This document shows, piece by piece, positions 6,931-64,000 of a stretch of 64,000 bases of DNA. This DNA comes from an uncultured Candidatus Saccharibacteria bacterium (GTDB lineage: Bacteria > Patescibacteriota > Saccharimonadia > Saccharimonadales > JACQNP01). The position numbers were made by a program, and so were the translations under genes. Where the stretch lies: contig CAZSZC010000002.1 of NCBI GenBank assembly GCA_964610775.1, positions 33,600-97,599 of the forward strand, written 5' to 3'. The notes beneath the pieces were generated by a model. It saw nothing but the letters and a program-made list of their open reading frames with translations. It was not told the origin of the DNA and searched no databases. The number at the start of each line of letters is the position of its first letter. Position 1 is the stretch's first letter.

Positions 6931-7177
6931 ATTTTGAGGCTCAGAGGCGGTCATATCGCACCATATATTTAAATGTCGACGAGTTACTAAAGAAAATTCT
7001 AGACATTCTTCTCTTACATCACACCGTTCACGCAAATACTTAAACTCATCTACCTCTTAGTCTGATAACACGATATTATCATTCTTTTTCTAACGTGCAG
7101 CATCACCACACTGGGCAAAGATCTTCCAGTTATTATCCCATTCAAACAAATTGCGCACCTGGTGAGCATATTAAAAA

Positions 7178-8791
7178 CTAGCCAACGACTCTATAAACCT
7201 CTTCTAGGGTCGTAAGCCCCGCGCATACTTTTAGAATACCATCTTGTAACATCGTCTTCATTCCACTACGAATTGCTGCTTCTTCTATAGTTTGTACCGA
7301 TAGACCCTTTTGACCTGACTCAAGCAAGGTTCGTATTTCACCAGTCATAACAAATTGCTCACGCAAAGGTACTTGACCAACATAGCCATAAGGATTCTCA
7401 GCCGACTCGCCTGGCTTATATAATTGCAGGTTGTCTAGATTAGGTTTTTCGATATTTTCTGGCAGAGTATCTACGATTTCACGTATCTTGGCTAGAGTAA
7501 CTTCGTCCGGTTGGTAGACTTGCTTGGTAGTATCGTCGAGCAGCCGAACTAACCGCTGAGCCATGACCAAACGAATAGCGGAAACAAACAACGGATTCTC
7601 ACCGATTACATCCATTATTCTTGTCAGGGCCGCAGCTGCTGATGAGGCATGAAATGTTGAAAGCACTAAATGACCTGTCAGAGAGGCCTGTAGGGCGGTT
7701 TTTGCAGTATCCATATCCCTAATCTCCCCCACCATGACAATGTCAGGGTCAAGACGCAAAATAGCTCGAAGTTTATTGGCAAAACTAGTACTATCTTGCA
7801 CCCCTTGAGTTGTTACTGGTATTTGAGTGATCCCAGCAAACTGATATTCAACTGGGTCTTCAATAGTAATTATCTTGCGTTCTTCCGTATTAAGAGTATT
7901 AAGCATTGAATATAGTGTTGTCGTCTTACCGGAACCGGTTGGACCAACCACCATTACTAAGCCACTCGGCTTGACAATTATTTCGTCGACAATTGCTCTT
8001 TCTTGTGGTGAGAGTTTTAGGCGGTCGAGATTATACATCTCTGCATCCATATTAAATAAACGCATCACCATATCCATGCCATTAACAGTAGGGACTGTTT
8101 CTAGACGCAAATTAACATCTACCTCCGTGCCGTCCTCCATCATCAAATGTTGAGAAATGTGCCCTTGCTGAGCCTCACCCGATGACGTGGATACATCACC
8201 AGCACTAGCAATTGCCGATACCAAAACCCGATACTTCTCAGGGCTCAACCTCGCTATCGGGTGCAAAACTCCATCAATCCTGAATCTGATCCGAGCATGA
8301 TCACGCTGGGTCTCCACGTGTATGTCGGAAGAATTAAGCTTATGAGCTTGCTGCACAAGGTAAGCCAATATATCATTAGCTTTAACTTGTTCTAAAGTAG
8401 CCGAAACGGACTCAATTACGTCTTGGTTTCCAGTCTCATTAATCTCAATATCGTGATAAACAACTTGCTTTGGCGGATCGTATAATCTCATGTAGTCTCG
8501 GAAACCATTGTCAGAAATCAAAGAGAAGGATACTCTTTGGTCCAAGAAACGATTCCGTAAGTTTGTCATTGTTTGCTGAGAAGTCGTATTTGTAACACCA
8601 AATAGAATGCTGTGCTCAGTTACTTTTATTGGAATAGTTTTGAGTGACTTAAGCTCGTCAAGTGACAATACTTCCTTATATAACTCTTTCTGTTCTAGGG
8701 GTGTTTGGGACGTATCAAAATAATCAAGCCCCAGTATACGGGCTCTACGCTGAGTATTAGCCTCTTCGTCTCGTCTCGCGTCTTGTGCCAT
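7178..8791 (-). CDS. pilB: type IV pilus / type II secretion ATPase (GspE/PilB family)
   Basis: 537 aa; Walker A VGPTGSGKTTTLY, Asp box DPDIVMVGEIRD, His box GHLVLSTFHA; T2SSE_N-like N-terminal domain. Confidence 0.85.
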   Translation of the reverse strand: MAQDARRDEEANTQRRARILGLDYFDTSQTPLEQKELYKEVLSLDELKSLKTIPIKVTEHSILFGVTNTTSQQTMTNLRNRFLDQRVSFSLISDNGFRDYMRLYDPPKQVVYHDIEINETGNQDVIESVSATLEQVKANDILAYLVQQAHKLNSSDIHVETQRDHARIRFRIDGVLHPIARLSPEKYRVLVSAIASAGDVSTSSGEAQQGHISQHLMMEDGTEVDVNLRLETVPTVNGMDMVMRLFNMDAEMYNLDRLKLSPQERAIVDEIIVKPSGLVMVVGPTGSGKTTTLYSMLNTLNTEERKIITIEDPVEYQFAGITQIPVTTQGVQDSTSFANKLRAILRLDPDIVMVGEIRDMDTAKTALQASLTGHLVLSTFHASSAAAALTRIMDVIGENPLFVSAIRLVMAQRLVRLLDDTTKQVYQPDEVTLAKIREIVDTLPENIEKPNLDNLQLYKPGESAENPYGYVGQVPLREQFVMTGEIRTLLESGQKGLSVQTIEEAAIRSGMKTMLQDGILKVCAGLTTLEEVYRVVG

Positions 8792-8847
8792 TAGTCTTAT
8801 TAAAGCATAAGCATGAGCGATATTGAAGATGATGTTACACTTTTCAA

Positions 8848-9360
8848 GTGAATGCTAAATCTTTTGTTGTTATCGCCCATGATATTCGAAGTTGTCTTAA
8901 TATTGGCAGCTTATTGAGAACAGCCGATGGACTTGGTGTCGATAAGCTGTACCTAACTGGCTACACACCCTATCCATTATCAAATCATGACGACAGACTA
9001 CCTCACCAAGCCCAAAAAATTCATAATCAAATTCATAAATCCGCTCTTGGTGCTGAAGACATAGTCAATTGGGTACACGAGTCAGACGTACATAAGGTAA
9101 TCAAGAAACTAAAAGACCAAGGTTACGAAATATTTGCACTTGAGCAAAGTGCCAAATCGATCGACCTTAGACAGCTCACGCCTCCACAGAAAATAGCACT
9201 ACTACTTGGTCGTGAAGTTGAAGGCATAGACTCTGAACTACTCGATGAATGTAATCAGATTATAGAAATACCAATGCGCGGCAAAAAAGAATCATACAAC
9301 GTAGTCCAGGCCTTTGCCATGGCTGGTTACCAAATACGGTTCGGACAATTTGTTAAGTAA
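8848..9360 (+). CDS. SpoU/TrmH-family RNA 2'-O-methyltransferase
   Basis: 170 aa; SPOUT-fold motifs (LLLGREVEGI, IPMRGKKESYNVVQAFAM). Confidence 0.7.
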   Translation: MNAKSFVVIAHDIRSCLNIGSLLRTADGLGVDKLYLTGYTPYPLSNHDDRLPHQAQKIHNQIHKSALGAEDIVNWVHESDVHKVIKKLKDQGYEIFALEQSAKSIDLRQLTPPQKIALLLGREVEGIDSELLDECNQIIEIPMRGKKESYNVVQAFAMAGYQIRFGQFVK

Positions 9361-34101: not shown

Positions 34102-34785
34102 ATGGAAGTAGTATTTGACCACAAGCAAAAATTAAACTCCGAAATAACTAGTTATTTTTTTGTGCCATCAAAACCCTTACACTATATTGCTGGTCAGTTT
34201 ATAGAACTTACACTACCAATTGCAGGCAATGCATCTGAAAAAAACCGTTGGTTTACTCTTTCGTCATCTCCAACCGAAAAACTATTATCAATAACAACCA
34301 GACACCCGAGAGACTTATCAAATTTTAAGAAACATCTGGCTAAAATGAAGCCTGGCGATGTGGCTCACATGAGTCAAGCTATGGGTGATTTCGTACTCCC
34401 AAAGGATCCACAAATTCCATTGGTATTTGTGGCTGCTGGGATTGGTATAACGCCCATGCGAAGCATGCTAGCTAGCCAGATTGAATCACGTCAAAAAAGA
34501 CACATAAACACCCTTTACTTTGTTAAGTCTCATGCTGATGCCTGTTTTGTAGATCTCCTAAAATCAACAAGTACAACACTGGATATAATTGTCACCAAAT
34601 CGAAAAATAGCATCAGTTCAATGATAGAGAATATTCATGATTACTCAAGCACTAATGGATTTGAGCATGTTTATTTATCTGGTCCCGAGCCACTTGTCGA
34701 GAACTTGAGTAATCATCTATCGAATGAAGGCTATCGAGATTATCGATTACATACCGACTTTTTCCCTGGCTATAACCATATATAG
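34102..34785 (+). CDS. ferredoxin-NADP reductase-like FAD/NAD(P)-binding oxidoreductase
   Basis: 227 aa; GQFIEL...RWFTLSS (RxYS-like FAD motif) and AAGIGITPMRSML (NAD-binding GxGxxP). Confidence 0.6.
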   Translation: MEVVFDHKQKLNSEITSYFFVPSKPLHYIAGQFIELTLPIAGNASEKNRWFTLSSSPTEKLLSITTRHPRDLSNFKKHLAKMKPGDVAHMSQAMGDFVLPKDPQIPLVFVAAGIGITPMRSMLASQIESRQKRHINTLYFVKSHADACFVDLLKSTSTTLDIIVTKSKNSISSMIENIHDYSSTNGFEHVYLSGPEPLVENLSNHLSNEGYRDYRLHTDFFPGYNHI

Positions 34786-34793
34786 CCCTGGGA

Positions 34794-35291
34794 TCAATCA
34801 GGAATATCGAAATCTATAAGTTTTCGTTGGACTGCAATATATTGCTCGATCTCCGAATCAGATAAATCAAACAACCAGTACCGCATTGCATGCAAAATTG
34901 ATTGCTCAGCATCATAGGCTAGTTTTTTACCACTTCGAGTTATTATTAAGTATTTAACCCGGCGGTCTTTAGAAGACACCTTTTGACGAACTAACGATCG
35001 TTTCACTAAATCTTTAACCAATCCAACGGCTTGTGGAGTATTAACATCAAATACTTCCCCGATTCTAGTAACTGTGAATTCTCCGGATTCATCATTAGCA
35101 AGAGTGTTAATTATAGTCCAATCTGTTACAGTCAGACCAAATTGTTTAATAGCCCTAGCCACTACCACGCGCAGCGCCGACTCAGCACGAGCATGTAGCG
35201 ACAACCACTCAGTAGCATCAAATAACCTCTCGGCTTCGAGTCCCGTAGTCGAAACATCGCCCTTTATACGTATTGGCACTTTTAGCGCCAC
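34794..35291 (-). CDS. MarR-family transcriptional regulator
   Basis: 165 aa; winged-HTH pattern (TVTDWTIINTLA...FTVTRIGEVFDVNTPQAVGLVKDLVKRSLV). Confidence 0.65.
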   Translation of the reverse strand: MALKVPIRIKGDVSTTGLEAERLFDATEWLSLHARAESALRVVVARAIKQFGLTVTDWTIINTLANDESGEFTVTRIGEVFDVNTPQAVGLVKDLVKRSLVRQKVSSKDRRVKYLIITRSGKKLAYDAEQSILHAMRYWLFDLSDSEIEQYIAVQRKLIDFDIPD

Positions 35292-35293
35292 AG

Positions 35294-36235
35294 TTATAGC
35301 CCTTCGTATTTATCTTCCAGGAATTCTCGAATACGTAGTGCAGCAGTTGCACCTTCGCCAGCAGCGCTAGCAATCTGCATGGTCGCACCGCTACGAACAT
35401 CACCTGCAGCAAATACACCCTTAATAGAAGTTTGTAGAGTACTGTCGGTCTTGATTAGACCAACTTTGTCTAGCTCTATGCCACTGTTTTCTAAGAATTG
35501 AGTATTGGGTAGTAAACCTATGAATACAAAAACCCCATCCGTAGGAAACTCTGTTTTTTTGCCATCTTTTTTACCAACCACTTTAACCACCTTATTATCT
35601 TCTGCAACTATTTCATCTGTTGATGTATTAAGATGAACGGTGATTTTATCATTTTTTTCAAGCTCGTGTATTAAGACATCAGAGGCACGCAACTCACTTC
35701 TTACCAATAGGTCAATTTTGCTAGCAAACCTAGTTAAAAATAACGCCTCCTGGACGGCCGAATTACCACCACCAACAACCACTAAATGTTTGTCTCTATA
35801 AAATGCTCCATCACATGTAGCGCAATAATGTACACCCCGAGCATAATATTCAGCCTCTCCCGGAATACCGAGTTTCTTATAATCACTACCAGTGGCTATG
35901 AGAACAGCCCTAGCTTTAATTTCGCCATCAGTAGTTTCTAAACTTTTATAATCACCCTTATCTACGATACTCAAAACCTCGCCTAGGCGAATTTCAGCTC
36001 CAAATCTCTCTGCTTGTTGACGCAATTCTTCAGATAAATCAAGGCCGGAAACGCCTTTAGCAAAGCCTGGATAATTATCGATCCAGTCAGTTATTGCCGC
36101 CAGCCCACCTATAACGCCTTTTTCATACAAAACAGTATCTATATCTTCGCGCGTAGTATATATAGCCGCAGTTAGTGCTGCTGGCCCCGCACCAACTATT
36201 ACAACCGGTAATACCTCGTCTTTGCTCTCACTCAT
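35294..36235 (-). CDS. trxB: thioredoxin-disulfide reductase
   Basis: 313 aa; VVIVGAGPAALTAAIY, redox-active CATCDG, second GGGNSA dinucleotide motif. Confidence 0.9.
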   Translation of the reverse strand: MSESKDEVLPVVIVGAGPAALTAAIYTTREDIDTVLYEKGVIGGLAAITDWIDNYPGFAKGVSGLDLSEELRQQAERFGAEIRLGEVLSIVDKGDYKSLETTDGEIKARAVLIATGSDYKKLGIPGEAEYYARGVHYCATCDGAFYRDKHLVVVGGGNSAVQEALFLTRFASKIDLLVRSELRASDVLIHELEKNDKITVHLNTSTDEIVAEDNKVVKVVGKKDGKKTEFPTDGVFVFIGLLPNTQFLENSGIELDKVGLIKTDSTLQTSIKGVFAAGDVRSGATMQIASAAGEGATAALRIREFLEDKYEGL

Positions 36236-55286: not shown

Positions 55287-56141
55287 TCAAGGAATCCAGG
55301 AGTTTATAGACAATATTACACATAAACAAGTTAAAACGATCAGCGAAAAACCAAACATCTTACCTGCCCAAATACGCGTATCGACTACATTGTAGCCCTT
55401 AGCACTTCTATAAAACCATACCACTGACAGGCTGAGCATAACAATTAGATATGTAATCCCCGTATAGCCAAATATTGTTAGTAAAGGAACTGTTAAAGTA
55501 AAAACTATAATGTAGATGAGGATCCTCTTTTTAGTTACTTCCAGCCCCCTGCTTACAGGCAGAATTGGAATACGCGCCTTTTTATAATCTTTAAGTCTGA
55601 AAATACCAACTGCATAAAAATGTGGCATCTGCCAAAAAACTAACAGAAGAAATAGACACAGACTAGCGATGTCAAATCTTCCAGTAAAAGCACAATAACC
55701 TACAACCGGCGGGACTGCTCCTGAGATACTTCCTATTTCTGTACTAAAAACAGTAACGCGCTTGAAATATCCATAGACAATTACATACATAAAAAAACCA
55801 AAAAGTGCGAATATCGTAGCTAGGGTTGTCGTAAAATAACCCAGCATTACTGTTCCTATTATTAATAGAAAAAATGCAAATATTAGGGCGTTGACTACTG
55901 GTACACCACCGGTTGCCAGAGCTCTCTTACTCGTTCTAGACATCTTTTGATCAATATCTTTATCTATGTAGTTATTGCATACACAAGCGGAAGCTATTAT
56001 GCAGCCCAGACCAATTATTACGGCAACCAAAGACTTCCATTCAACATTACCTTGGGCGGCTAGTAGAAAACCAGCTATAGCGGTCATGGCATTACCGCGA
56101 ACAATTCCGGGCTTAGTTAGGCTAGTATATTCTTTCAACAT
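55287..56141 (-). CDS. cyoE: protoheme IX farnesyltransferase (heme O synthase, UbiA family)
   Basis: 284 aa; NxxxDxxxD (NNYIDKDID) and second Asp-rich region, 8-9 TM; divergent from cyoA. Confidence 0.85.
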   Translation of the reverse strand: MLKEYTSLTKPGIVRGNAMTAIAGFLLAAQGNVEWKSLVAVIIGLGCIIASACVCNNYIDKDIDQKMSRTSKRALATGGVPVVNALIFAFFLLIIGTVMLGYFTTTLATIFALFGFFMYVIVYGYFKRVTVFSTEIGSISGAVPPVVGYCAFTGRFDIASLCLFLLLVFWQMPHFYAVGIFRLKDYKKARIPILPVSRGLEVTKKRILIYIIVFTLTVPLLTIFGYTGITYLIVMLSLSVVWFYRSAKGYNVVDTRIWAGKMFGFSLIVLTCLCVILSINSWIP

Positions 56142-56325: not shown

Positions 56326-57231
56326 TTGTCACGAAGTAGTAAAAAATCTAGATCTTCTTTGATCGTAGCAGTTGCTATGTCGATGCTGATTTGTTTTGTG
56401 CTTATTTTACAAGCTCTTCTTCGCGGCAAAAATGTTGCCTTACTTAACCCCAAGGGTCTAATCGCACAACAACAACACAACCTTCTGGTTTTTTCAGTAA
56501 TTTTACTTCTTACGATCGCTATACCAACACTTATTTTTCTTTATTCTACCGCTTGGAAATACCGTGATTCAAGCCCGAGAGCTATACATAATCCAGCTAA
56601 CAATCGTAGCAAATTACTTGTATTAAGCATGTGGCTACTGCCAACCATATTTATGCTTATTCTTGCCAGCGTCATGATACCGGCAACACATAAACTGTCA
56701 CCTCAAAAAACAATTGCCACCGACACCGAACCATTAACAATACAGGTAATATCATTACGCTGGAAATGGTTATTTATCTATCCTGATCAGAAAATTGCAA
56801 CGATTAACTTTGTGCAAGTTCCAATAAACACTCCTGTAACGTTTGAACTAACTGCGGATGAAACTCCCATGAGTTCATTCTGGATCCCAAATATCGGTGG
56901 ACAGTTATACTCGATGACCGGACATGTAAATAGACTAAACCTTATGGCAGAGAAAGCCGGCGATTACACAGGAAGTACAGCAGAAATAAACGGTGCTGGC
57001 TTTGCTGGTATGAGGTTTACAACCCGCGCCAGCAATAACGAAGACTTCGATCATTGGGTCGAAGAAGTAAAGAAGTCTCCTGATATTCTAGACAATGATA
57101 CTTATAGCAACTTGTTGAAACCCAGCGAGAACAATAAGACCGCTTTCTACTCTAATTATAAGGGTGATTTATATGATAAAGTGGTTATGAAATACTCAGA
57201 ACCGAGCGAAGGGCATATGCATCACGAATGA
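56326..57231 (+). CDS. cyoA: cytochrome bo3-type quinol oxidase subunit II
   Basis: 301 aa; two N-terminal TM helices; WKWLFIYP and SFWIPNIGGQ cupredoxin-domain motifs of CyoA (no CuA ligand set). Confidence 0.8.
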   Translation: MSRSSKKSRSSLIVAVAMSMLICFVLILQALLRGKNVALLNPKGLIAQQQHNLLVFSVILLLTIAIPTLIFLYSTAWKYRDSSPRAIHNPANNRSKLLVLSMWLLPTIFMLILASVMIPATHKLSPQKTIATDTEPLTIQVISLRWKWLFIYPDQKIATINFVQVPINTPVTFELTADETPMSSFWIPNIGGQLYSMTGHVNRLNLMAEKAGDYTGSTAEINGAGFAGMRFTTRASNNEDFDHWVEEVKKSPDILDNDTYSNLLKPSENNKTAFYSNYKGDLYDKVVMKYSEPSEGHMHHE

Positions 57232-59318
57232 AAGAACTACTAGTTGGCAATTTGAGTTGGCAAGCATTACCCCATGAATGGTTTACCATCGGTGGTACAC
57301 TAACATTTTTGCTACTCGCACTAATCGTGATTATAGTCATAACACGTACTAAGCGGTGGACTTGGCTTTGGAAAGAATGGCTGACTACAGTTGATCCGAA
57401 GAAAATCGGTATCATGTATTTCATTGCAGGCGGGGCTATGCTCCTTCGTGGCGGACTAGATGCGCTAATGATATGGCTACAACAAGCTCTCTCATCTGGC
57501 AGTTCACACGGATATCTTTCGTCAGACCACTTTCAACAAATTTTTACAGCCCATGGCAACATAATGGTATTTTTTGTGGCTATGGCCTTTATTTTTGGTC
57601 TCATAAACTACATTGTACCTCTACAGATTGGTGCGCGTGATTTAGCATCACCTCTCATGAACACACTTGGGTTTTGGTTGTTTATTGGCGGAATAATAAT
57701 GGTGAACATGTTCTTCCTATTTGGTGGCCAGTATGCGGCAACTGGTTGGCTGGCGGTTGCCCCGCTTTCCGGGAAAGAATTTAGCCCCGGTGTAGGCGTT
57801 GATTATTGGGTATGGAGCTTGATGATATCGGGTATAGGTACAACCCTTGGTGCAATTAATTTCATTATGACAATCCTGAAGATGAGAGCGCCAGGTATGA
57901 AGTTGTTTATGATGCCCCTTTTTACCTGGGGTTCACTTTGTAGCATGGTTATGGCGGTCACAGTGTTCCCATTGCTGACGGCAACACTTTTTTTGGTGTA
58001 CTTTGATCGCGCTCTTGGAACACACTTCTTTACAACCATGGGAGGTGGCGACCCTATGATGTATACCAATCTGATCTGGATGTGGGGACACCCGGAAGTA
58101 TACGTTTTGATTCTGCCAGCTTTCGGCCTATTTTCAGAAGTAGTTTCAACATTTAGCCGAAAAGCTATCGCCAGTTATAAGTCGGCTGTATGGGGTATGA
58201 TTGGCGTTTCGTCACTAGCATTGTCTGTATGGCTACATCATTTCTTTACTATGGGGGCTGGAGCTGATGTAAATTCGTTCTTCGGTCTCATGACCATGTT
58301 GATTGCAATACCGACTTCGGCACTCGTTTTCAACTGGATAGCAACTATGTACAAAGGCAATATACGATTCGACACACCAATGTTGTGGTTTCTCGGATTT
58401 GTTAGCATATTTGCCATTGGCGGCATAACTGGTGTAATGCTGGCTGTGCCGCCAGCAGATTTTCAGTTGCATAATAGCCTATTCTTGGTGGCTCATTTTC
58501 ATTCAACCGTAATTGGCGGGGTACTCTTTGGAGTTTTCTGCGCCTTGTCTTATTGGTTCCCAAAGTTCACAGGCTTTAGACTCAATGAGAGAATTGGTAG
58601 ATATGCATTTTGGTGCTGGTTGATTGGATTCTGTTTGTCATTTATACCCATGTACATATTAGGATTTATGGGTGCTAGCAGAAGGCTCGACCATTACGAA
58701 GCTTCTACTGGCTGGCAGCCATTTTTTATACTAATGCTGATTGGGGGCATAGTTATCGCCATAGGTGTAGCTTTGCAGCTTGCTCAAATTCTAGCTAGTT
58801 TTATAGAAAAGAAGCGGCTTCGCACTACTGCTGACCCTTGGGACGGGCGATCGCTGGAATGGTCAGTTGACTCACCTCCGCCATTTTATAACTTTACGAC
58901 TATACCTCACGTATCGACACGAGATGCATATTGGCAAAACAAGCGACATATTAAGCCGACAAAAGCCAAATACGAGGATATACATATGCCAAAAAATACT
59001 GCAGTCGGTATATATATCTCGATTTTTGGGACGCTTGCATCTTTTGCTTTCGTTTGGGACATAGTCTGGCTTGCAGTGGTATCAATAATTGGTATTATAG
59101 TGACCTTTATTATTCGAGGATTCAATGAGAATTCCGAGTACACACTTGCCGCCGCAGAAGTACAACATATTGAGGAATCCAGATTAAAGGCTGTATCATC
59201 AGCTGGGCCCATCAAAACATACAACAAGGATGAAGACATGGGCTTATTAGATCTTGTTAAATTTATATATGGATTCACTCTAGATTTTATACGTAATAAA
59301 CGGTGGTCATCACAATGA
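57228..59318 (+). CDS. cyoB: cytochrome bo3-type quinol oxidase subunit I (heme-copper oxidase)
   Basis: 696 aa; canonical HCO subunit I His ligands (WGHPEVY, HHFF..., VAHFH); 4-nt overlap with cyoA. Confidence 0.95.
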   Translation: MKELLVGNLSWQALPHEWFTIGGTLTFLLLALIVIIVITRTKRWTWLWKEWLTTVDPKKIGIMYFIAGGAMLLRGGLDALMIWLQQALSSGSSHGYLSSDHFQQIFTAHGNIMVFFVAMAFIFGLINYIVPLQIGARDLASPLMNTLGFWLFIGGIIMVNMFFLFGGQYAATGWLAVAPLSGKEFSPGVGVDYWVWSLMISGIGTTLGAINFIMTILKMRAPGMKLFMMPLFTWGSLCSMVMAVTVFPLLTATLFLVYFDRALGTHFFTTMGGGDPMMYTNLIWMWGHPEVYVLILPAFGLFSEVVSTFSRKAIASYKSAVWGMIGVSSLALSVWLHHFFTMGAGADVNSFFGLMTMLIAIPTSALVFNWIATMYKGNIRFDTPMLWFLGFVSIFAIGGITGVMLAVPPADFQLHNSLFLVAHFHSTVIGGVLFGVFCALSYWFPKFTGFRLNERIGRYAFWCWLIGFCLSFIPMYILGFMGASRRLDHYEASTGWQPFFILMLIGGIVIAIGVALQLAQILASFIEKKRLRTTADPWDGRSLEWSVDSPPPFYNFTTIPHVSTRDAYWQNKRHIKPTKAKYEDIHMPKNTAVGIYISIFGTLASFAFVWDIVWLAVVSIIGIIVTFIIRGFNENSEYTLAAAEVQHIEESRLKAVSSAGPIKTYNKDEDMGLLDLVKFIYGFTLDFIRNKRWSSQ

Positions 59319-59899
59319 CTCATAAAATCGATCACGAGTCAGAAGCTAACGACAGAGCACTTTTCGGGTTTTGGATCTACTTAATGACCGACCTTTTAAT
59401 GTTTGCAGTTCTTTTTGCTGTTTATTCAGTCCTGCACAATAACACAAGCGGAGGAGAAACAGGACGTCAACTTTTCAGTCTACCATTGGCACTTACTGAA
59501 ACTATAATTTTGCTTACCAGTAGCTTCACTTGTGGGATTGGTATGATCGCAGCCCGTCGCGGCAATAAGAGCCAAGTACTACTTTGGTTTGGTATTACCT
59601 TCGCTTTAGGATTAGCATTTTTGAGCCTAGAGCTAAAGGAATTCTCCACACTAATACAAGAAGGTCATACCCTGCGAAGTAATGCATTTATGTCTTCGTT
59701 CTTTGTGCTTCTAGGTACTCACGGTCTTCACATTGCCTCTGGTTTGCTATGGATGGGTACTACCATGGCATTTATCATAAAGCGAGGACTCAATTCACAC
59801 ATGGTGCGCAAGCTTACAATGCTAAGTCTATTCTGGCATTTTCTGGACATAGTTTGGATCTTTATATTTACCATTGTGTATCTGGGGGCATTTGTATGA
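59303..59899 (+). CDS. cyoC: cytochrome bo3-type quinol oxidase subunit III
   Basis: 198 aa; FGFWIYLMTD, GTHGLHI, LFWHFLDIVWIF motifs. Confidence 0.85.
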   Translation: MVITMTHKIDHESEANDRALFGFWIYLMTDLLMFAVLFAVYSVLHNNTSGGETGRQLFSLPLALTETIILLTSSFTCGIGMIAARRGNKSQVLLWFGITFALGLAFLSLELKEFSTLIQEGHTLRSNAFMSSFFVLLGTHGLHIASGLLWMGTTMAFIIKRGLNSHMVRKLTMLSLFWHFLDIVWIFIFTIVYLGAFV

Positions 59900-60582
59900 G
59901 CAAGACCCATCATCATTCAACCACTGAGCACGGAACCATAGTTTCTTACGTAATTGGATTCATTCTATCTTTACTATTCACGTTCATACCTTATTACCTT
60001 GTCGTTAATCAAATCATTACAGGTACCTCACTGCTAATAACTATTGTTGTTTTCGCTTTAATACAAATGGTTATACAAATAACCTTCTTTCTTCACATTG
60101 GCAGAGGGCCGAAGCCGAATTGGAACTTGTTCTTTTTCTTATCAACATTTGTAATCATATTGGCTGTAGTGGGTGGATCAATTTTCATCATGAATAACCT
60201 TCACTACAATATGTCACCAAAAGACAAAATAAAGAAAATAGTCAATGACGAGGGCATATCACAAATTGGGGGCGAACCCACAGGAGCCTGTCAAGAACTC
60301 TTCGATAATCATAGGATAATTATTAAGAACGGCCAGGCCTACCCCTACAGTGTCACGGCAAAAAGATGCGACACACTTACATTTATAAACGAGGACGAAA
60401 CGACACGCGAGATTGCGTTCGGTGAGCACCCATACCATGAATCTTATGCTGGCAGCAGCGAAATTATAATTGTGCGAAAAGGACGAGGCAAAACGATAAC
60501 CCTATCCGAAAACGGAACTCATAAGTTCCACGACCACCTTCACGAAGAGACGGCTGGCGAATTCACCGTAACAAGCGAATAA
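59896..60582 (+). CDS. cyoD: quinol oxidase subunit IV fused to a ~115-aa C-terminal beta-rich (cupredoxin-like) domain
   Basis: Start at the ATG at 59896 (ATGA overlap with the cyoC stop); the caller's upstream extension overlaps cyoC. First ~110 aa has 3 TM helices (CyoD-like); remainder is soluble, with the pattern CDTLTFINEDETTREIAF and a His-rich THKFHDHLHEE stretch. Confidence 0.75.
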   Translation: MSKTHHHSTTEHGTIVSYVIGFILSLLFTFIPYYLVVNQIITGTSLLITIVVFALIQMVIQITFFLHIGRGPKPNWNLFFFLSTFVIILAVVGGSIFIMNNLHYNMSPKDKIKKIVNDEGISQIGGEPTGACQELFDNHRIIIKNGQAYPYSVTAKRCDTLTFINEDETTREIAFGEHPYHESYAGSSEIIIVRKGRGKTITLSENGTHKFHDHLHEETAGEFTVTSE

Positions 60583-60585
60583 GAC

Positions 60586-61128
60586 TTACTGTATTTGCTC
60601 GGCGATTTGCATGAGTTTGCGCAGTGTATTTATGTTGCGAATTGTCATCTGTGAATATAGTTCCGTATTAATCAATCTTGGAACTTTGCTTTTTGACAAA
60701 TTATTACGATCGATATTCCATACTAGGGCACCATCACAATACTTAAGTGTTTCAATGTTTGGATTTACACCAATTTTGTTAAGTATGTTTGAATTATTAA
60801 TATTGTCCTTGAGGAACATTACATCAGTTTTAGTTGCACCATTATTTTCCCAACTAATAGGTATTGAATCATTAATGTAACGAAGTTTATTTAAGCCCAT
60901 AACAACAACTGGGATAGTGAAGCCAAATTCATCATCAATAGCACCTTCAATTTGCATTCTTAACTGCGATGTTGAGCTATCATATGCAGCAAAGACTACA
61001 TTACCGGAATTTATGTAAGTTACTACCTTGTCAAAACCCAAATTCTCAAATAATTTTTTAAGCCTTAGCATTTCAACTCGACTATTGCCTCCAACATTTA
61101 CACCTCTTAGAAATGCGACATAAACCAT
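60586..61128 (-). CDS. DUF1697-domain protein
   Basis: 180 aa; MVYVAFLRGVNVGGNSRVEMLRLKKLFENLGFDKVVTYINSGNVVF is the DUF1697 N-terminal signature. Confidence 0.65.
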   Translation of the reverse strand: MVYVAFLRGVNVGGNSRVEMLRLKKLFENLGFDKVVTYINSGNVVFAAYDSSTSQLRMQIEGAIDDEFGFTIPVVVMGLNKLRYINDSIPISWENNGATKTDVMFLKDNINNSNILNKIGVNPNIETLKYCDGALVWNIDRNNLSKSKVPRLINTELYSQMTIRNINTLRKLMQIAEQIQ

Positions 61129-61137
61129 ACTTATATA

Positions 61138-61797
61138 TTAGTTCTTTTTGTTTGCTTTGTTTTTACCAGAAAAAAGTGACATACGCAGTATCCGCACAGC
61201 CACGGCTATAATCAAAACTATAAAAGTAACTAGTAGTATCAATCTCCAAAATGATTCTTTGAAATCCGTACCGCTGTTAAGAACATGAAATACAACCAAA
61301 ACCATGACTGCATAGCTAATAACATGCGTCCATTTCCACAATCTTTTATGTTTCGATATCCAACCTACCGTATCAAGTGAGCTAAATATGACAACATAGG
61401 CTCCATATGCCGCCAATATACCGGCTGGAATAGCTAAAAGTCCTAGATGCAAGCCAAATAATGATGTGCCGTTCGAGTAGTTCTTTAAAAATGGTACGAA
61501 TATTTGAGCCAAAGAAAAATTAACATAATGATCAGCTAATAATCCTAGCATATGGATAGCGATACTAACAGCCAAAGTTATAGCCATAGCCTTGTGTACT
61601 GACCAAGCTTTAACGGGAGAAAAAAGGCGATAAGTCCAGCCTGTAACATGACCAATACCAGATATCATAAGAAGTACTAATAGGGTTAACGAAACGAGTC
61701 CTGAAGCTCTAATAACATACCAAGCCCAAGAATCGCGAAGTGTTGACGTAACTACTTCTGATGACGATACTGCAAAATATACATAACTAGGATGCAT
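61138..61797 (-). CDS. ferric-reductase-type transmembrane domain protein (MsrQ/NOX FRD-like bis-heme b membrane subunit)
   Basis: 219 aa; 5-6 TM; two His pairs spaced 13-14 residues apart in separate helices (HKAMAITLAVSIAIH; HVISYAVMVLVVFH), as in heme-ligating FRD helices; 11-nt overlap with apbE. Confidence 0.7.
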   Translation of the reverse strand: MHPSYVYFAVSSSEVVTSTLRDSWAWYVIRASGLVSLTLLVLLMISGIGHVTGWTYRLFSPVKAWSVHKAMAITLAVSIAIHMLGLLADHYVNFSLAQIFVPFLKNYSNGTSLFGLHLGLLAIPAGILAAYGAYVVIFSSLDTVGWISKHKRLWKWTHVISYAVMVLVVFHVLNSGTDFKESFWRLILLVTFIVLIIAVAVRILRMSLFSGKNKANKKN

Positions 61798-62710
61798 GTA
61801 TCATGCCCTCCTTCTGATCTATCATATATGAACCGTCTGTATATTGCAGCGCCTTACCGAGTATGGGTTCACTACTTTTACTTTTAGCAAAATCAATGGA
61901 TGAGTTAATCAAAATTGATTTAGCATATACATCGGCCGCTATAGCACTGGAACATACAACAGTAACTGATAAAATGTTGGTGTTAGCAGACCCACCAGTT
62001 CGTGGATCGATTATATGATGCCAATTTTTACCTCGTCGTTTAGTTACGCCAGAGGTTGCAATGGCTATTTTACCAAACTTCTCATTCGTGACTACGGCTA
62101 ATGTCATTTTATTGTCCGAGGCTTTTGCAATCTCAATCTCCCAAGCCTTACCATCAACATCTTTACCGTTGCATATTACGTCGCCGCCAAGAGAAAGCCA
62201 GTAGTTATGAATCTGCTTTTTGTCCAAAATATGCGATAGAGAATTTAGTAAGTAACCCTTGCCAATGCCGCCAAAATCGAGAGCCGTATCATAAGGTATC
62301 ATCGCTAAATCGTTTTTTAGATTAATCATCTCTGCATTTGCTATTTTGCGACCCCTAAGGTCTAGCTTACTATCATATATATCAGGTGCCGGCCACGAAC
62401 CAACATAGCCCGCTTGTTGGAGTGATGGCAAAATAAATGGATTGAAGATACCCCCTGTTAGTTTCGAGTAATACTTAGTCTCTTGTAATAATTTAGTGAA
62501 TTCGGGCGATACCTTCACATTGTGTCCAGATTGTGCATTAAAAAGTGACAATTCACTATCAGGCCTAAACCTACTAAATCGCTGTTCAAAATCATCAACA
62601 TATTGCCATATCTCCAAGAATAGAGAATCAATTTTTACTATCGGATGAACTACTAGAGTAATAACAGCTTCGGAACCGAGCTTGTATTCAATCTGTTGAT
62701 AGCGTTTCAT
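61787..62710 (-). CDS. apbE: FAD:protein FMN transferase
   Basis: 307 aa; FGGIGKGY and ATSGVTKRRGKNWHHIIDPRTG are the ApbE signatures; no obvious signal peptide; 2-nt gap to the upstream gene. Confidence 0.8.
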   Translation of the reverse strand: MKRYQQIEYKLGSEAVITLVVHPIVKIDSLFLEIWQYVDDFEQRFSRFRPDSELSLFNAQSGHNVKVSPEFTKLLQETKYYSKLTGGIFNPFILPSLQQAGYVGSWPAPDIYDSKLDLRGRKIANAEMINLKNDLAMIPYDTALDFGGIGKGYLLNSLSHILDKKQIHNYWLSLGGDVICNGKDVDGKAWEIEIAKASDNKMTLAVVTNEKFGKIAIATSGVTKRRGKNWHHIIDPRTGGSANTNILSVTVVCSSAIAADVYAKSILINSSIDFAKSKSSEPILGKALQYTDGSYMIDQKEGMIHAS

Positions 62711-62711
62711 G

Positions 62712-63791
62712 TTATGAAACCTGTGATCGCGGACTTTGATAACTATTCATCATTGTTGGGCTGCTAGTAGAATTTGCAGAACTTGGGGTTGACGACGAGC
62801 TTGGTGCAGGAGTAATAGGCTGAGCTGGAGCAAGATTATTGTCTGTTGTTGTATTACTAAGAGGTAGGTCATCGTCCTCTTCTGTGCTTTCAGGAATTGT
62901 GGGTGAGATCTTTTTGGTAGTTTGCTGAACTTGTGTACTTGGCTCTAGTGACTGTGCCAGATTTAACTTGTGTTCAATATCTTTAAAGCCTACGCCACTA
63001 ACAAGTACCAAGAAAGCAACAAAACTCAGTGTATAGGCAACCTGAGAAGGAGTAAGTCCAAATACTTTTGAAGATTTTTTCGTACTTGATGAAAAACTCT
63101 CCGTCCATATATTATCTTCGTGCACGCCCATACCGCTCAGGACTTTTGTCATAGAATTCATCATTCCTTCGGGCCCACAAATGTAATAATCGAACTCGTT
63201 GACCCGTTCGCCAACCAGCGAGCTCAAATGACTGTCGTCAATCGGGCCCTTAATATAACCCCTGTTTTCCCCTGGTAGTTTTGATAAGAAAAAATAAGCT
63301 TTTATCTTAGGATTATCGTTTACTATCTGCCTTATGTCTTCCTCATAAGGTATGTCACTCATGTCACGACAAGCATAAAGCAATGTTACCGACCGGTCAG
63401 AGTGGTCTATCTCTGTGGTACGCAACATACTAATGAACGGTGTTATACCTATACCGCCAGCCATCAAGACAACACTTTTATCATCTTCGTGTAGCACAAA
63501 GTCTCCATAGGGTCCCTGTACCTTAATATCATCACCGGTTTGTGAACTTGCTAAATCTCGAGTAAAATCCCCAGTTACTCTAAAAGCAAATTCTAGTACT
63601 CCGGCTTGGTTTGATATGCTCGTAAACGACAAACATCGAACAGGAGACCAGTGATTATTTCTTTTAATCGATAAAGTAGCGTACTGACCGGCCCAAAATA
63701 CCATCTGATCACGAGACGTCTCCGGCTTCAAAGTTAATACTACGTAACTACCTCTTTTATCTACGTTATAAACTTTATATTTATTCATCAT
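62712..63791 (-). CDS. FNR/Fre-like NAD(P)H:FAD oxidoreductase with C-terminal TM anchor and extracytoplasmic Ser/Thr/Pro-rich tail
   Basis: 359 aa; FAD motif RCLSFTS, GPYG, NAD(P) motif VLMAGGIGITPF, YYICGPEGM. Then KKSSK plus TM helix (VAYTLSFVAFLVLVSGVGF), then an ~85-aa low-complexity P/S/T/acidic tail. Confidence 0.7.
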   Translation of the reverse strand: MMNKYKVYNVDKRGSYVVLTLKPETSRDQMVFWAGQYATLSIKRNNHWSPVRCLSFTSISNQAGVLEFAFRVTGDFTRDLASSQTGDDIKVQGPYGDFVLHEDDKSVVLMAGGIGITPFISMLRTTEIDHSDRSVTLLYACRDMSDIPYEEDIRQIVNDNPKIKAYFFLSKLPGENRGYIKGPIDDSHLSSLVGERVNEFDYYICGPEGMMNSMTKVLSGMGVHEDNIWTESFSSSTKKSSKVFGLTPSQVAYTLSFVAFLVLVSGVGFKDIEHKLNLAQSLEPSTQVQQTTKKISPTIPESTEEDDDLPLSNTTTDNNLAPAQPITPAPSSSSTPSSANSTSSPTMMNSYQSPRSQVS

Positions 63792-63834
63792 TTTATACTT
63801 TATCCAGATTTACTTAGTTAAAGCTGAGAAGTAA

Positions 63835-64000
63835 TTAAATTCTTTGGTCGTAAGCCTTTATGACTGAATCAATATTAATCCCGTTAGTTACATTCCTATA
63901 GCCAGCTTGATCTAGTTGATACTTAACCTTCCCCGCCCTGGCTCCGGTCCGACAATAAAGAACTATTTCTGCATCTTTAGGAATCGAACCAAAACTTTCT
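63835..64000 (-). CDS. rhodanese-domain protein, C-terminal part (5' end beyond window)
   Basis: Minus-strand translation ...ESFGSIPKDAEIVLYCRTGARAGKVKYQLDQAGYRNVTNGINIDSVIKAYDQRI* has the rhodanese active-site loop CRTGARAG; stop codon at 63835-63837. Confidence 0.5.
   Translation of the reverse strand, partial: ESFGSIPKDAEIVLYCRTGARAGKVKYQLDQAGYRNVTNGINIDSVIKAYDQRI

Follow-up and report, generated by a model that had tools for sequence, protein, structure and literature searches.

What are a flavin dehydrogenase, a flavin transferase and a ferric-reductase-type membrane protein doing side by side in an organism with almost no recognisable respiratory chain? Saccharibacteria and other bacteria of the Candidate Phyla Radiation (CPR) fit this description, and their genomes are tiny. 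The question is raised by a stretch of 64,000 nucleotides (nt), here called the window, from an uncultured Candidatus Saccharibacteria bacterium (assembly GCA_964610775.1, contig CAZSZC010000002.1, 33,600-97,599 of the forward strand). Near its end, three adjoining genes encode an FNR-like dehydrogenase, the flavin transferase ApbE and a membrane protein of the ferric-reductase-domain (FRD) type. Going by sequence comparison, this cassette is very probably a di-heme module that is driven by NAD(P)H and moves electrons across the membrane.

The functional unit consists of exactly these three genes. Conserved peptides of the FRD protein were searched against one genome per species, which delivered 42 loci. 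The titled ones are all Saccharibacteria, plus one from Falkowbacteria and one from an unclassified member of the Patescibacteria. When the window proteins are compared with these loci by tblastn, the two outer genes can both be seen in 35 of them, and 32 of these have the order FNR-like, ApbE, FRD. Three more divergent cassettes, reached via homologs of the FNR-like protein, keep this order too. Together with the window itself, this makes 36 out of 39 cassettes. In these 36 the genes mostly abut or overlap, and protein identity is only 30-50%. Such a recurrence of gene order goes far beyond chance.

A second way of looking at this is to cluster all open reading frames (ORFs) within ~6 kb in 44 loci. 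Only three families recur, in 44, 41 and 39 loci, and the next-largest clusters are antisense artefacts. An ortholog of the FNR-like protein is present in 41 of these 44 loci.

The initial annotation of this DNA described an operon of five co-directional genes on the minus strand, with a rhodanese gene at one end and a DUF1697 gene at the other. All five ORFs are indeed there, at 60586-64000, but only the FNR-like, apbE and FRD genes are syntenic in relatives. The part of that proposal that made apbE a member of the unit is thereby borne out, as is the placing of the system in a reduced-genome host: the organism is a CPR bacterium, and the named relatives come from Saccharibacteria or other Patescibacteria, bar one protein labelled Dormibacteraeota by its source. 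DUF1697 was rejected as a component of the system. It was found in three of the 44 loci, adjoining the cassette only in the window’s own species and in L005, and at a distance in L014. The rhodanese was rejected likewise. Either of the two turns up in no more than 3 or 4 of the 44 loci, and apart from the window a rhodanese comes as close as a few kb in L005, L036 and L037 only.

Some loci deviate in their own ways. L005 is a Saccharibacteria contig of 427 kb in which two ORFs take the place of one apbE and the DUF1697 gene is broken (7128-8019 and 8628-9168). Either this cassette is decaying, or these are frameshift errors of the assembly. The Falkowbacteria locus L046 (4312-4728, 5680-6522) has an extra gene for a small secreted acidic protein between the FNR-like gene and apbE. 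In the divergent cassettes L048 (7835-8830) and L050 (5102-5695), a gene for a membrane-anchored protein overlaps the 3’ end of the FRD gene, and these lineages could have in it one more partner on the outside. For the L050 protein there is a weak match to an Ig-like family (Big_14, E = 1e-5). The one from L048 has no Pfam match, and its likeness to the L050 protein was judged by eye.

At residues 112, 205 and 231 the dehydrogenase has the motifs GGIGITP, CGP and ESF, respectively, and its domain identity is also backed by NCBIfam matches. Behind the domain comes a single hydrophobic helix. In orthologs this helix is typically preceded by (K/R)LTY and followed by DLxRxVPK, with partial conservation in an alignment of 36 proteins. 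The window protein differs, with VAYTL before and FKDIEHK after the helix.

That the dehydrogenase and the FRD protein belong together is best seen in their relatives. Beyond its own family, the FNR-like domain is most closely related to proteins of ~440 amino acids (aa) with the order Ferric_reduct-FAD_binding_8-NAD_binding_1, one of which is from the CPR lineage WWE3. From the other side, an exhaustive search with a profile of the FRD alignment found 4132 relatives. Among the best matches (E = 1e-50 to 1e-69) are four single-chain proteins, P0115, P0116, P0127 and P0129, that read FAD_binding_6-NAD_binding_1-helix-Ferric_reduct. These single-chain fusions indicate that the pair in the window acts as a single machine. 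The order of dehydrogenase, helix and FRD is the reverse of that in NOX, and the window pair would therefore be a split and permuted NOX-like module. Relatives in the canonical order were also found (P0167, P0172). The earlier suggestion that the two proteins are halves of a module of the NOX/MsrQ type thus gains support from natural fusions as well as from the FRD-FAD-NAD proteins nearest to the dehydrogenase.

In the fusions, the dehydrogenase helix runs directly into the first core helix of the FRD via a short external loop. An AlphaFold2 (AF2) model of the fusion P0116 has a mean predicted local distance difference test (pLDDT) of 89 and a predicted TM-score (pTM) of 0.70. In this model, which is of a relative and not of the window protein, the dehydrogenase domain can be aligned with FNR, with cytochrome b5 reductase and with the dehydrogenase domain of SpNOX (E = 1e-13 to 1e-15).

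Turning to the FRD protein, four histidines (H68, H82, H158 and H171) are invariant in an alignment of 26 sequences. The spacings are x13 and x12, as in NOX. The two histidine pairs for two b hemes that had been read from the sequence are thus confirmed as conserved residues with the spacing of NOX, while the hemes themselves stay putative. PF01794 is found, in precomputed form, on most of the 47 homologs of the FRD protein, and orthologs at 42-48% identity match it with E = 2.5e-8 to 5e-7 (30-34 bits, with a cut-off of 28). An AF2 model of the window protein, based on the 26 sequences, has a pLDDT of 90.9 and five long helices. A fold search with this model matches di-heme membrane cytochromes, including NOX and STEAP. 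By sequence, the profile has only a marginal match to a solved structure, which is SpNOX (E = 0.07). The invariant histidines and the fold together point to an FRD-type cytochrome that would hold two b hemes.

The superfamily fold of NOX, STEAP and MsrQ has six helices, and six were also assumed for this protein. Hydropathy shows five segments, in agreement with the model. Parts rich in lysine and arginine are the loop 47-64, the loop 141-155 and the C-terminus. According to the positive-inside rule, this puts the N-terminus outside and the C-terminus inside. In the orthologs from L046 and L048-L050, the same first core helix is preceded by a signal peptide and by an exported domain that is acidic or of low complexity, which is independent support for this topology. 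With the N-terminus outside, the helices with the histidines would run from inside to outside, like transmembrane helices 3 and 5 (TM3 and TM5) of NOX. The conserved loop GIGHVTGWTY is then predicted to be cytoplasmic, in the position of the B-loop of NOX.

The helix of the dehydrogenase may serve as the missing first FRD helix. Gene order and fusions are compatible with this. Against the idea are the N-terminal signal or anchor helix that more divergent FRD orthologs have of their own, and the low confidence of the corresponding helix in the P0116 model.

The start of the FRD protein has some features of its own. In the AF2 model, the N-terminal 25 residues, which are not hydrophobic, are continuous with the first membrane helix (H3-52). 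The model implies that this helix would form a stalk projecting outside the membrane. At the base of the stalk, W24 is nearly invariant and W26 is invariant. In L046, P0139, P0167 and P0172, the FRD protein starts with a signal peptide and acidic bacterial TSP3 (calcium-binding) repeats.

This leaves the question of what ApbE is for. ApbE attaches flavin mononucleotide (FMN) to proteins, and its canonical target motif is D-x-x-[ST]-G-A-[ST]. The initial annotation saw no such motif in the FNR-like, ApbE, FRD and DUF1697 proteins. This stands: a regular expression scan for [ST]GA[ST] finds nothing in the first three, and direct reading of the translation finds nothing in DUF1697. The three cassette proteins of the window are also free of [ST]G[AS][ST]. 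The same annotation regarded the target as unknown. Here it missed the conserved end of the dehydrogenase, to which the search can now be narrowed.

The dehydrogenase ends in a long tail in which serine, threonine and proline make up 37 of the 75 residues counted. Between orthologs the linker part of this tail is unalignable, with a length of 60-330 residues. When tails are instead aligned from their C-termini, a clear consensus appears, Y-x-x-P-x-[ST]-x-[V/A]-S. Counting back from the last residue, the 36 orthologs have serine at 0 in 36 of 36, proline at -5 in 36 of 36, serine or threonine at -3 in 35 of 36, valine or alanine at -1 in 32 of 36, and tyrosine at -8 in 33 of 36.

A wider set contains 48 such proteins, of which ten form a sister class B. 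The end of these ten is bracketed by cysteines, C-T-T-x-x-S-G-[V/T]-x-x-C, mostly plus one residue, and is near to the ApbE motif. It reads S-G-V-T or S-G-V-K in nine of the ten and S-G-T-T in the other. As an example, one class B tail ends in ...CTTSQSGVTTCK. P0077 (...CQTTPSGRCI) is a looser variant of class B. Nearly all class B ends share the valine at -1 with the first class. A third class of tail ends in ...PRTTVSTPPP. The tails of P0086 and P0082 contain Ig-like repeats with cysteine pairs. Such repeats, and the bracketing cysteines, suggest that the tail is in an exported location.

The tail also travels with apbE. None of the four fused relatives, which have no tail, has an adjacent apbE, as against 36 of the 39 split cassettes (Fisher p = 2.8e-4, not corrected for phylogeny). 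In one of the fusions, P0115, a canonical SGAT is present in the external loop that replaces the tail.

Earlier work on ApbE leaves room for such a target. In motif mutants, D to A has a minor effect, G to A and A to V leave ~50% flavinylation, and serine is accepted (PMC12052999). A 7-residue ApbE tag works best at the terminus of a protein (PMC12052999), and flavinylated C-terminal extensions occur in FMN_red proteins (PMC11334425). A hidden FMN_bind partner was looked for and rejected: neither the window (best tblastn E = 3.5) nor the cassettes turned one up, and ten related FRD proteins have none in the extensions at their N-termini. As judged from the sequences, the best candidate is the very end of the FNR-like protein, and it is somewhat more likely than not that ApbE flavinylates it.

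ApbE itself looks intact. Its best solved relative is the Vibrio cholerae enzyme 6nxi (E = 9e-23), and S220, H232 and D260 align with the catalytic S241, H257 and D285 of that enzyme. It is therefore predicted to be catalytically competent. A signal peptide or lipobox is absent from the window protein and from every full-length protein among the 37 orthologs recovered, which extends what had been noted for the window alone. The full-length orthologs open directly at the mature domain, with M-x-R-x-Q-Q...LGS, and there is no coding room upstream. A signal peptide is typical of ApbE but not universal, and cytosolic ApbEs exist (PMC12052999).

A similar situation is found in a second, unrelated flavinylation system of some Saccharibacteria. 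In L036 (6601-9286, minus strand), and also in L037, L039 and L032, a two-subunit Nqr/Rnf-like system lies beside an orphan FRD gene. One subunit in L036 (500 aa) joins an NqrB/RnfD-like membrane domain and an NAD-binding domain in a single protein, and the other (149 aa) is an FMN_bind protein with an anchor at its N-terminus and a canonical SGAT. The system has its own ApbE without signal peptide (245 aa). Upstream of the orphan FRD gene are rhodanese, glutaredoxin-like and Fur-like genes. Since this ApbE likewise has no signal peptide and its substrate looks exported, the combination may be a general feature of the phylum.

Put together, this leads to the following proposal. NAD(P)H would reduce FAD in the cytoplasmic dehydrogenase domain, judging from its motifs and fold. 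The dehydrogenase, which its own C-terminal helix would keep at the membrane, would dock on the five-helix FRD subunit from the cytoplasmic side, where GIGHVTGWTY would correspond to the B-loop of NOX. Electrons would then cross via two b hemes, first the inner and then the outer, for which histidines and fold suggest H68 with H158 and H82 with H171 as ligands. On the outside, the acceptor would be an FMN in phosphoester bond to Ser359, the terminal residue of the dehydrogenase’s own tail. ApbE would have put it there, on the conserved end Y-x-x-P-x-[ST]-x-V-S-COOH, making this a natural C-terminal flavin tag. The tethered flavin may hand its electrons on to an external acceptor. Candidates are O2, Fe(III), a quinone or the surface of a partner cell. 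Fully extended, the 89 residues of the tail could span tens of nanometres.

Because ApbE has no signal peptide, flavinylation is proposed to happen in the cytoplasm, on the free C-terminus, with the helix and the tail inserted into the membrane afterwards. No more than ~110 residues separate the helix from the end of the protein, so that translation is probably complete before membrane targeting, as post-translational insertion would need. A split, circularly permuted electron exporter of the NOX/MsrQ type with a flavin-tagged tail is somewhat favoured on this evidence. The full picture of a tethered extracellular flavin shuttle, with cytoplasmic flavinylation before export included, is more tentative and rather less likely than not.

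A number of points weigh against this proposal. The predicted cytoplasmic location of ApbE is in conflict with the predicted outside location of the tail. Cytoplasmic flavinylation before export is the weakest part of the model, and we know of no precedent for exporting a tail that already bears its flavin. The cassette has no terminal reductase linked to it. The S-Q-V-S of the window has neither the glycine nor the aspartate of the canonical motif. Three loci (L007, L018, L025) go directly from the FNR-like gene to the FRD gene with no apbE between, and there the tail motif is kept. The contigs around the fused relatives measure only 2.4-9.4 kb, which means that an apbE could lie further off. 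In the P0116 model, the first (linking) helix has a low pLDDT of ~60-66. Finally, of the Pfam searches that had been suggested for these genes, those with the FNR-like, ApbE and DUF1697 proteins gave their expected families, but the FRD protein of the window has no match at E <= 0.1. Its assignment comes from PF01794 in homologs, the invariant histidines and the AF2 fold match.

Several of these points can also be read as support for another explanation, in which the electron module works as proposed but the tail motif is a docking, sorting or glycosylation signal. ApbE would then act elsewhere: on a cytoplasmic T-G-x-T loop of the FRD protein, on a remote protein, as an FAD pyrophosphatase, or as a flavin chaperone for the dehydrogenase. 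The predicted cytoplasmic location of ApbE and the departure of the tail motif from the canonical one fit this. There is some precedent too, given that some Ftp/ApbE proteins are FAD pyrophosphatases (PMC4767422), and that ~4% of surveyed genomes hold apbE without a predicted substrate (PMC8238504). The FRD loop T52-G53-x-T55 is present in most orthologs and is even a canonical TGAT in L032. As a flavinylation site this loop was nevertheless rejected, since five cassettes that do have apbE (L027, L042, L035, L046, L047) show M, V or I in place of T55, and since the loop is kept in fused relatives without adjacent apbE, so that it does not track ApbE. A remote target sits badly with a cassette that is self-contained and has no further recurring neighbour. 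The C-terminal serine is the only serine or threonine that is invariant in every cassette in an exposed, flexible context, and class B tails come close to the canonical motif with SGVT. An ApbE that acts elsewhere is for these reasons rather unlikely.

There are two further explanations, both very unlikely. In one of them, the module is tied to the quinone pool and is not an exporter. The di-heme protein would trade electrons with quinone or quinol as E. coli MsrQ does, and together with the FNR-like protein it would be a missing NAD(P)H:quinone reductase that feeds the bo3-type quinol oxidase encoded by cyoABCD. In the window the cassette adjoins cyoABCD and cyoE, and Saccharibacteria have cyo but are not known to have an NADH:quinone reductase. 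This adjacency is not conserved however. It exists only in the window’s species, with no cyo genes within 6 kb in the other ~40 loci, and all that L027 offers is a cupredoxin-like protein homologous to the CyoD extension. Functional coupling to the cyo operon was rejected for this reason and is kept as a minor rival. MsrQ has been described as the quinone-binding subunit of a periplasmic methionine sulfoxide reductase (PMC8238504), but a quinone-site motif was not identified here, and a quinone reductase explains neither apbE nor the conserved tail. The other explanation is an NADPH oxidase like SpNOX, in which O2 is turned into superoxide at the outer heme and flavin and tail are accessory or irrelevant. 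The fold and the histidine geometry do match NOX and SpNOX, and the fusions without tail and apbE presumably work without a tethered flavin. O2 reduction is not something to be judged from sequence, but the strict keeping of apbE and the tail-end motif in split cassettes argues that both matter.

If the proposed tethered-flavin exporter is real, it would be a compact and mobile three-gene device that moves electrons from NAD(P)H to the outside of CPR cells. It would represent a new class of ApbE substrate, in which a bare peptide at the C-terminus hangs on a flexible tether and an FMN-binding domain is missing. Both splitting and circular permutation would have to be tolerated by the NOX core. 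It would also raise the question of how a cytoplasmic flavin transferase serves an exported target. In the reading as a tethered shuttle, this would be the first flavinylated polypeptide to be exported, and CPR epibionts could discharge NAD(P)H onto external acceptors or the host-cell surface without quinones. The cassette is small and self-contained, and its central prediction is an FMN on Ser359.

The coordinates of the cassette and its two co-directional neighbours are shown in Table 1.

Table 1 Positions of the cassette genes, their predicted parts and the flanking genes in the window.
Feature	Position	Strand	Details
DUF1697 gene	60586-61128	-	Pfam PF08002, E = 8.4e-36; co-directional, outside the conserved cassette
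FRD-type di-heme cytochrome gene	61138-61797	-	219 aa; putative hemes
apbE, FAD:protein FMN transferase	61787-62710	-	307 aa; PF02424, E = 2.1e-50
FNR-like dehydrogenase gene	62712-63791	-	359 aa; PF00175, E = 4.8e-16; PF00970, E = 1.3e-6
FAD and NAD(P)H dehydrogenase domain, predicted cytoplasmic	63087-63791	-	residues 1 to ~235; Pfam NAD_binding_1, FAD_binding_6
Single membrane helix of the dehydrogenase	62982-63047	-	residues ~249-270; sole hydrophobic segment
S/T/P-rich tail, predicted extracytoplasmic	62715-62981	-	89 residues
C-terminal motif YQSPRSQVS-COOH, candidate flavinylation site (Ser359)	62715-62741	-	conserved tail end
Single-domain rhodanese gene, 3’ end only	63835-64000	-	upstream neighbour, outside the conserved cassette

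The apbE and FRD genes overlap by 11 nt (61787-61797), exactly as first annotated. The gap between the FNR-like gene and apbE had been given as 2 nt, and is in fact 1 nt (62711). There are 9 nt from the FRD gene to DUF1697, and 43 nt from the rhodanese to the FNR-like gene. The rhodanese fragment is coding at 63838-63999, with its stop codon at 63835-63837. It has the active-site loop CRTGARAG, and its translation ends in ...LYCRTGARAGKV...DQRI*. The full rhodanese, of 88 aa and with a PF00581 match, can be found in contig L001, which is 96-100% identical to the window.

At the DUF1697 end, the cassette is met by the converging cyoABCD genes (plus strand, 56326-60582). Beyond cyoA lies the heme O synthase gene cyoE (minus strand, 55287-56141). 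CyoD (59896-60582, plus strand) has a C-terminal extension of ~120 residues that is cupredoxin-like (Cupredoxin_1, E = 9e-5, below the cut-off) and rich in histidine (HKFHDHLH). A stand-alone, membrane-anchored homolog of this extension, at 40% identity, is present in L027, 2 kb from the cassette there. A second multi-histidine membrane protein adjoins it (8646-9068, plus strand, and 8017-8655, minus strand).

Elsewhere in the window, a second, soluble protein of the FNR family is found among the ORFs 34102-34785 (plus), 34794-35291 (minus) and 35294-36235 (minus). It has 227 aa and is 26% identical to the cassette dehydrogenase. Its neighbours are a small unidentified ORF and a protein that, as judged by eye, looks like a flavoprotein of the thioredoxin reductase type. 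The latter contains a chance SGAT within its FAD-binding motif.

Scans of the full 64 kb found no tRNA, and no Rfam family at gathering score, which includes the FMN riboswitch. A scan for promoters and terminators found no more sites than in shuffled sequence. GC skew is negative along nearly the whole window.

Systems of this kind are not unprecedented. Clusters of PF01794 and apbE, typically with an FMN_bind gene, have been catalogued as ‘MsrQ-like’ flavinylation clusters (Meheust et al. 2021, eLife, PMC8238504), and so far they are predicted only. The MsrQ-like proteins often have a C-terminal PF00175, and the clusters, which are mostly from Actinobacteria, are bioinformatic predictions (PMC8238504; Huang et al. 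2024, mSystems, PMC11334425). The survey dropped clusters without a signal peptide, and reported flavinylation components to be strikingly under-represented in CPR (PMC8238504).

The cassette shares with these clusters a di-heme membrane protein of the PF01794 type (here by way of its orthologs) clustered with apbE. Their definition calls for PF01794 within five genes of apbE, and here the two genes are adjacent and even overlap. Also shared are an FNR-type NAD-binding module (PF00175) as the proposed cytosolic electron donor, and the proposed NAD(P)H-driven electron transfer to the outside via a covalent flavin. The differences are considerable however. The cassette lacks a substrate gene of the FMN_bind (PF04205), DUF2271 or DUF3570 family. 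Its NAD/FAD module is a separate protein, and in fused relatives it is N-terminal and not C-terminal. ApbE has no signal peptide or lipobox, so that the survey’s filter would have left it out. The FRD subunit has five helices instead of six, the candidate site is at the extreme end of a long low-complexity tail, and the lineage is CPR.

With NOX proteins (SpNOX, csNOX5, NOX2), the cassette has in common two pairs of histidines, spaced x13/x12, in the helices that correspond to TM3 and TM5. It also shares an FNR-type dehydrogenase in which GGxGxxP and CGP are present and an aromatic residue stands in a terminal E-x-F. The nearest outside relatives of that dehydrogenase are themselves CPR fusions in the order FRD-FAD-NAD. 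But the cassette comes as two polypeptides, in the permuted order dehydrogenase, helix, five-helix core, and it adds ApbE and a putative tethered flavin. The likeness to NOX is one of sequence and fold. A survey of the FRD superfamily from 2013 describes no N-terminal FNR-type dehydrogenase in bacteria.

Escherichia coli MsrQ (YedZ) and Fre are another parallel, where a separate reductase of the FNR family feeds a separate heme membrane protein of the FRD family. In the cassette, the reductase is instead membrane-anchored and co-encoded. The MsrP-type molybdoenzyme that goes with MsrQ is absent within ~6 kb in all of the 44 loci. In addition, the FRD protein has all four histidines, while short forms of the YedZ type usually have two or three (PMC3591440).

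As for the tail, the Flavin-tag (Tong et al. 2021, via PMC12052999) has in common with it that a short unstructured terminal peptide ending in serine or threonine suffices for ApbE, and natural C-terminal extensions bearing the site are known from FMN_red proteins (PMC11334425). The cassette motif is however [ST]-x-V-S or S-G-V-T and not D-x-x-[ST]-G-A-[ST]. Moreover, the site would be at the end of a predicted exported linker of 60-330 residues, across the membrane from the flavin domain.

The two-subunit Nqr/Rnf-like flavinylated systems (Meheust 2021) too occur in Saccharibacteria, beside the orphan FRD genes of L036, L037, L039 and L032. Like the cassette, they combine a module for NAD binding with an ApbE that has no signal peptide, and their flavinylated subunit is anchored in the membrane and bears a canonical SGAT. 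They differ in having an NqrB/RnfD-like membrane domain and a dedicated FMN_bind subunit. Among the papers searched, none names both Saccharibacteria and ApbE, and none ties Saccharibacteria or Patescibacteria to ferric-reductase-type proteins. What is new here, relative to the MsrQ-like clusters, is a cassette that does without FMN_bind, and that combines a separate and permuted dehydrogenase, a five-helix FRD protein, an ApbE free of a signal peptide and a candidate flavin tag at the very end of the tail.

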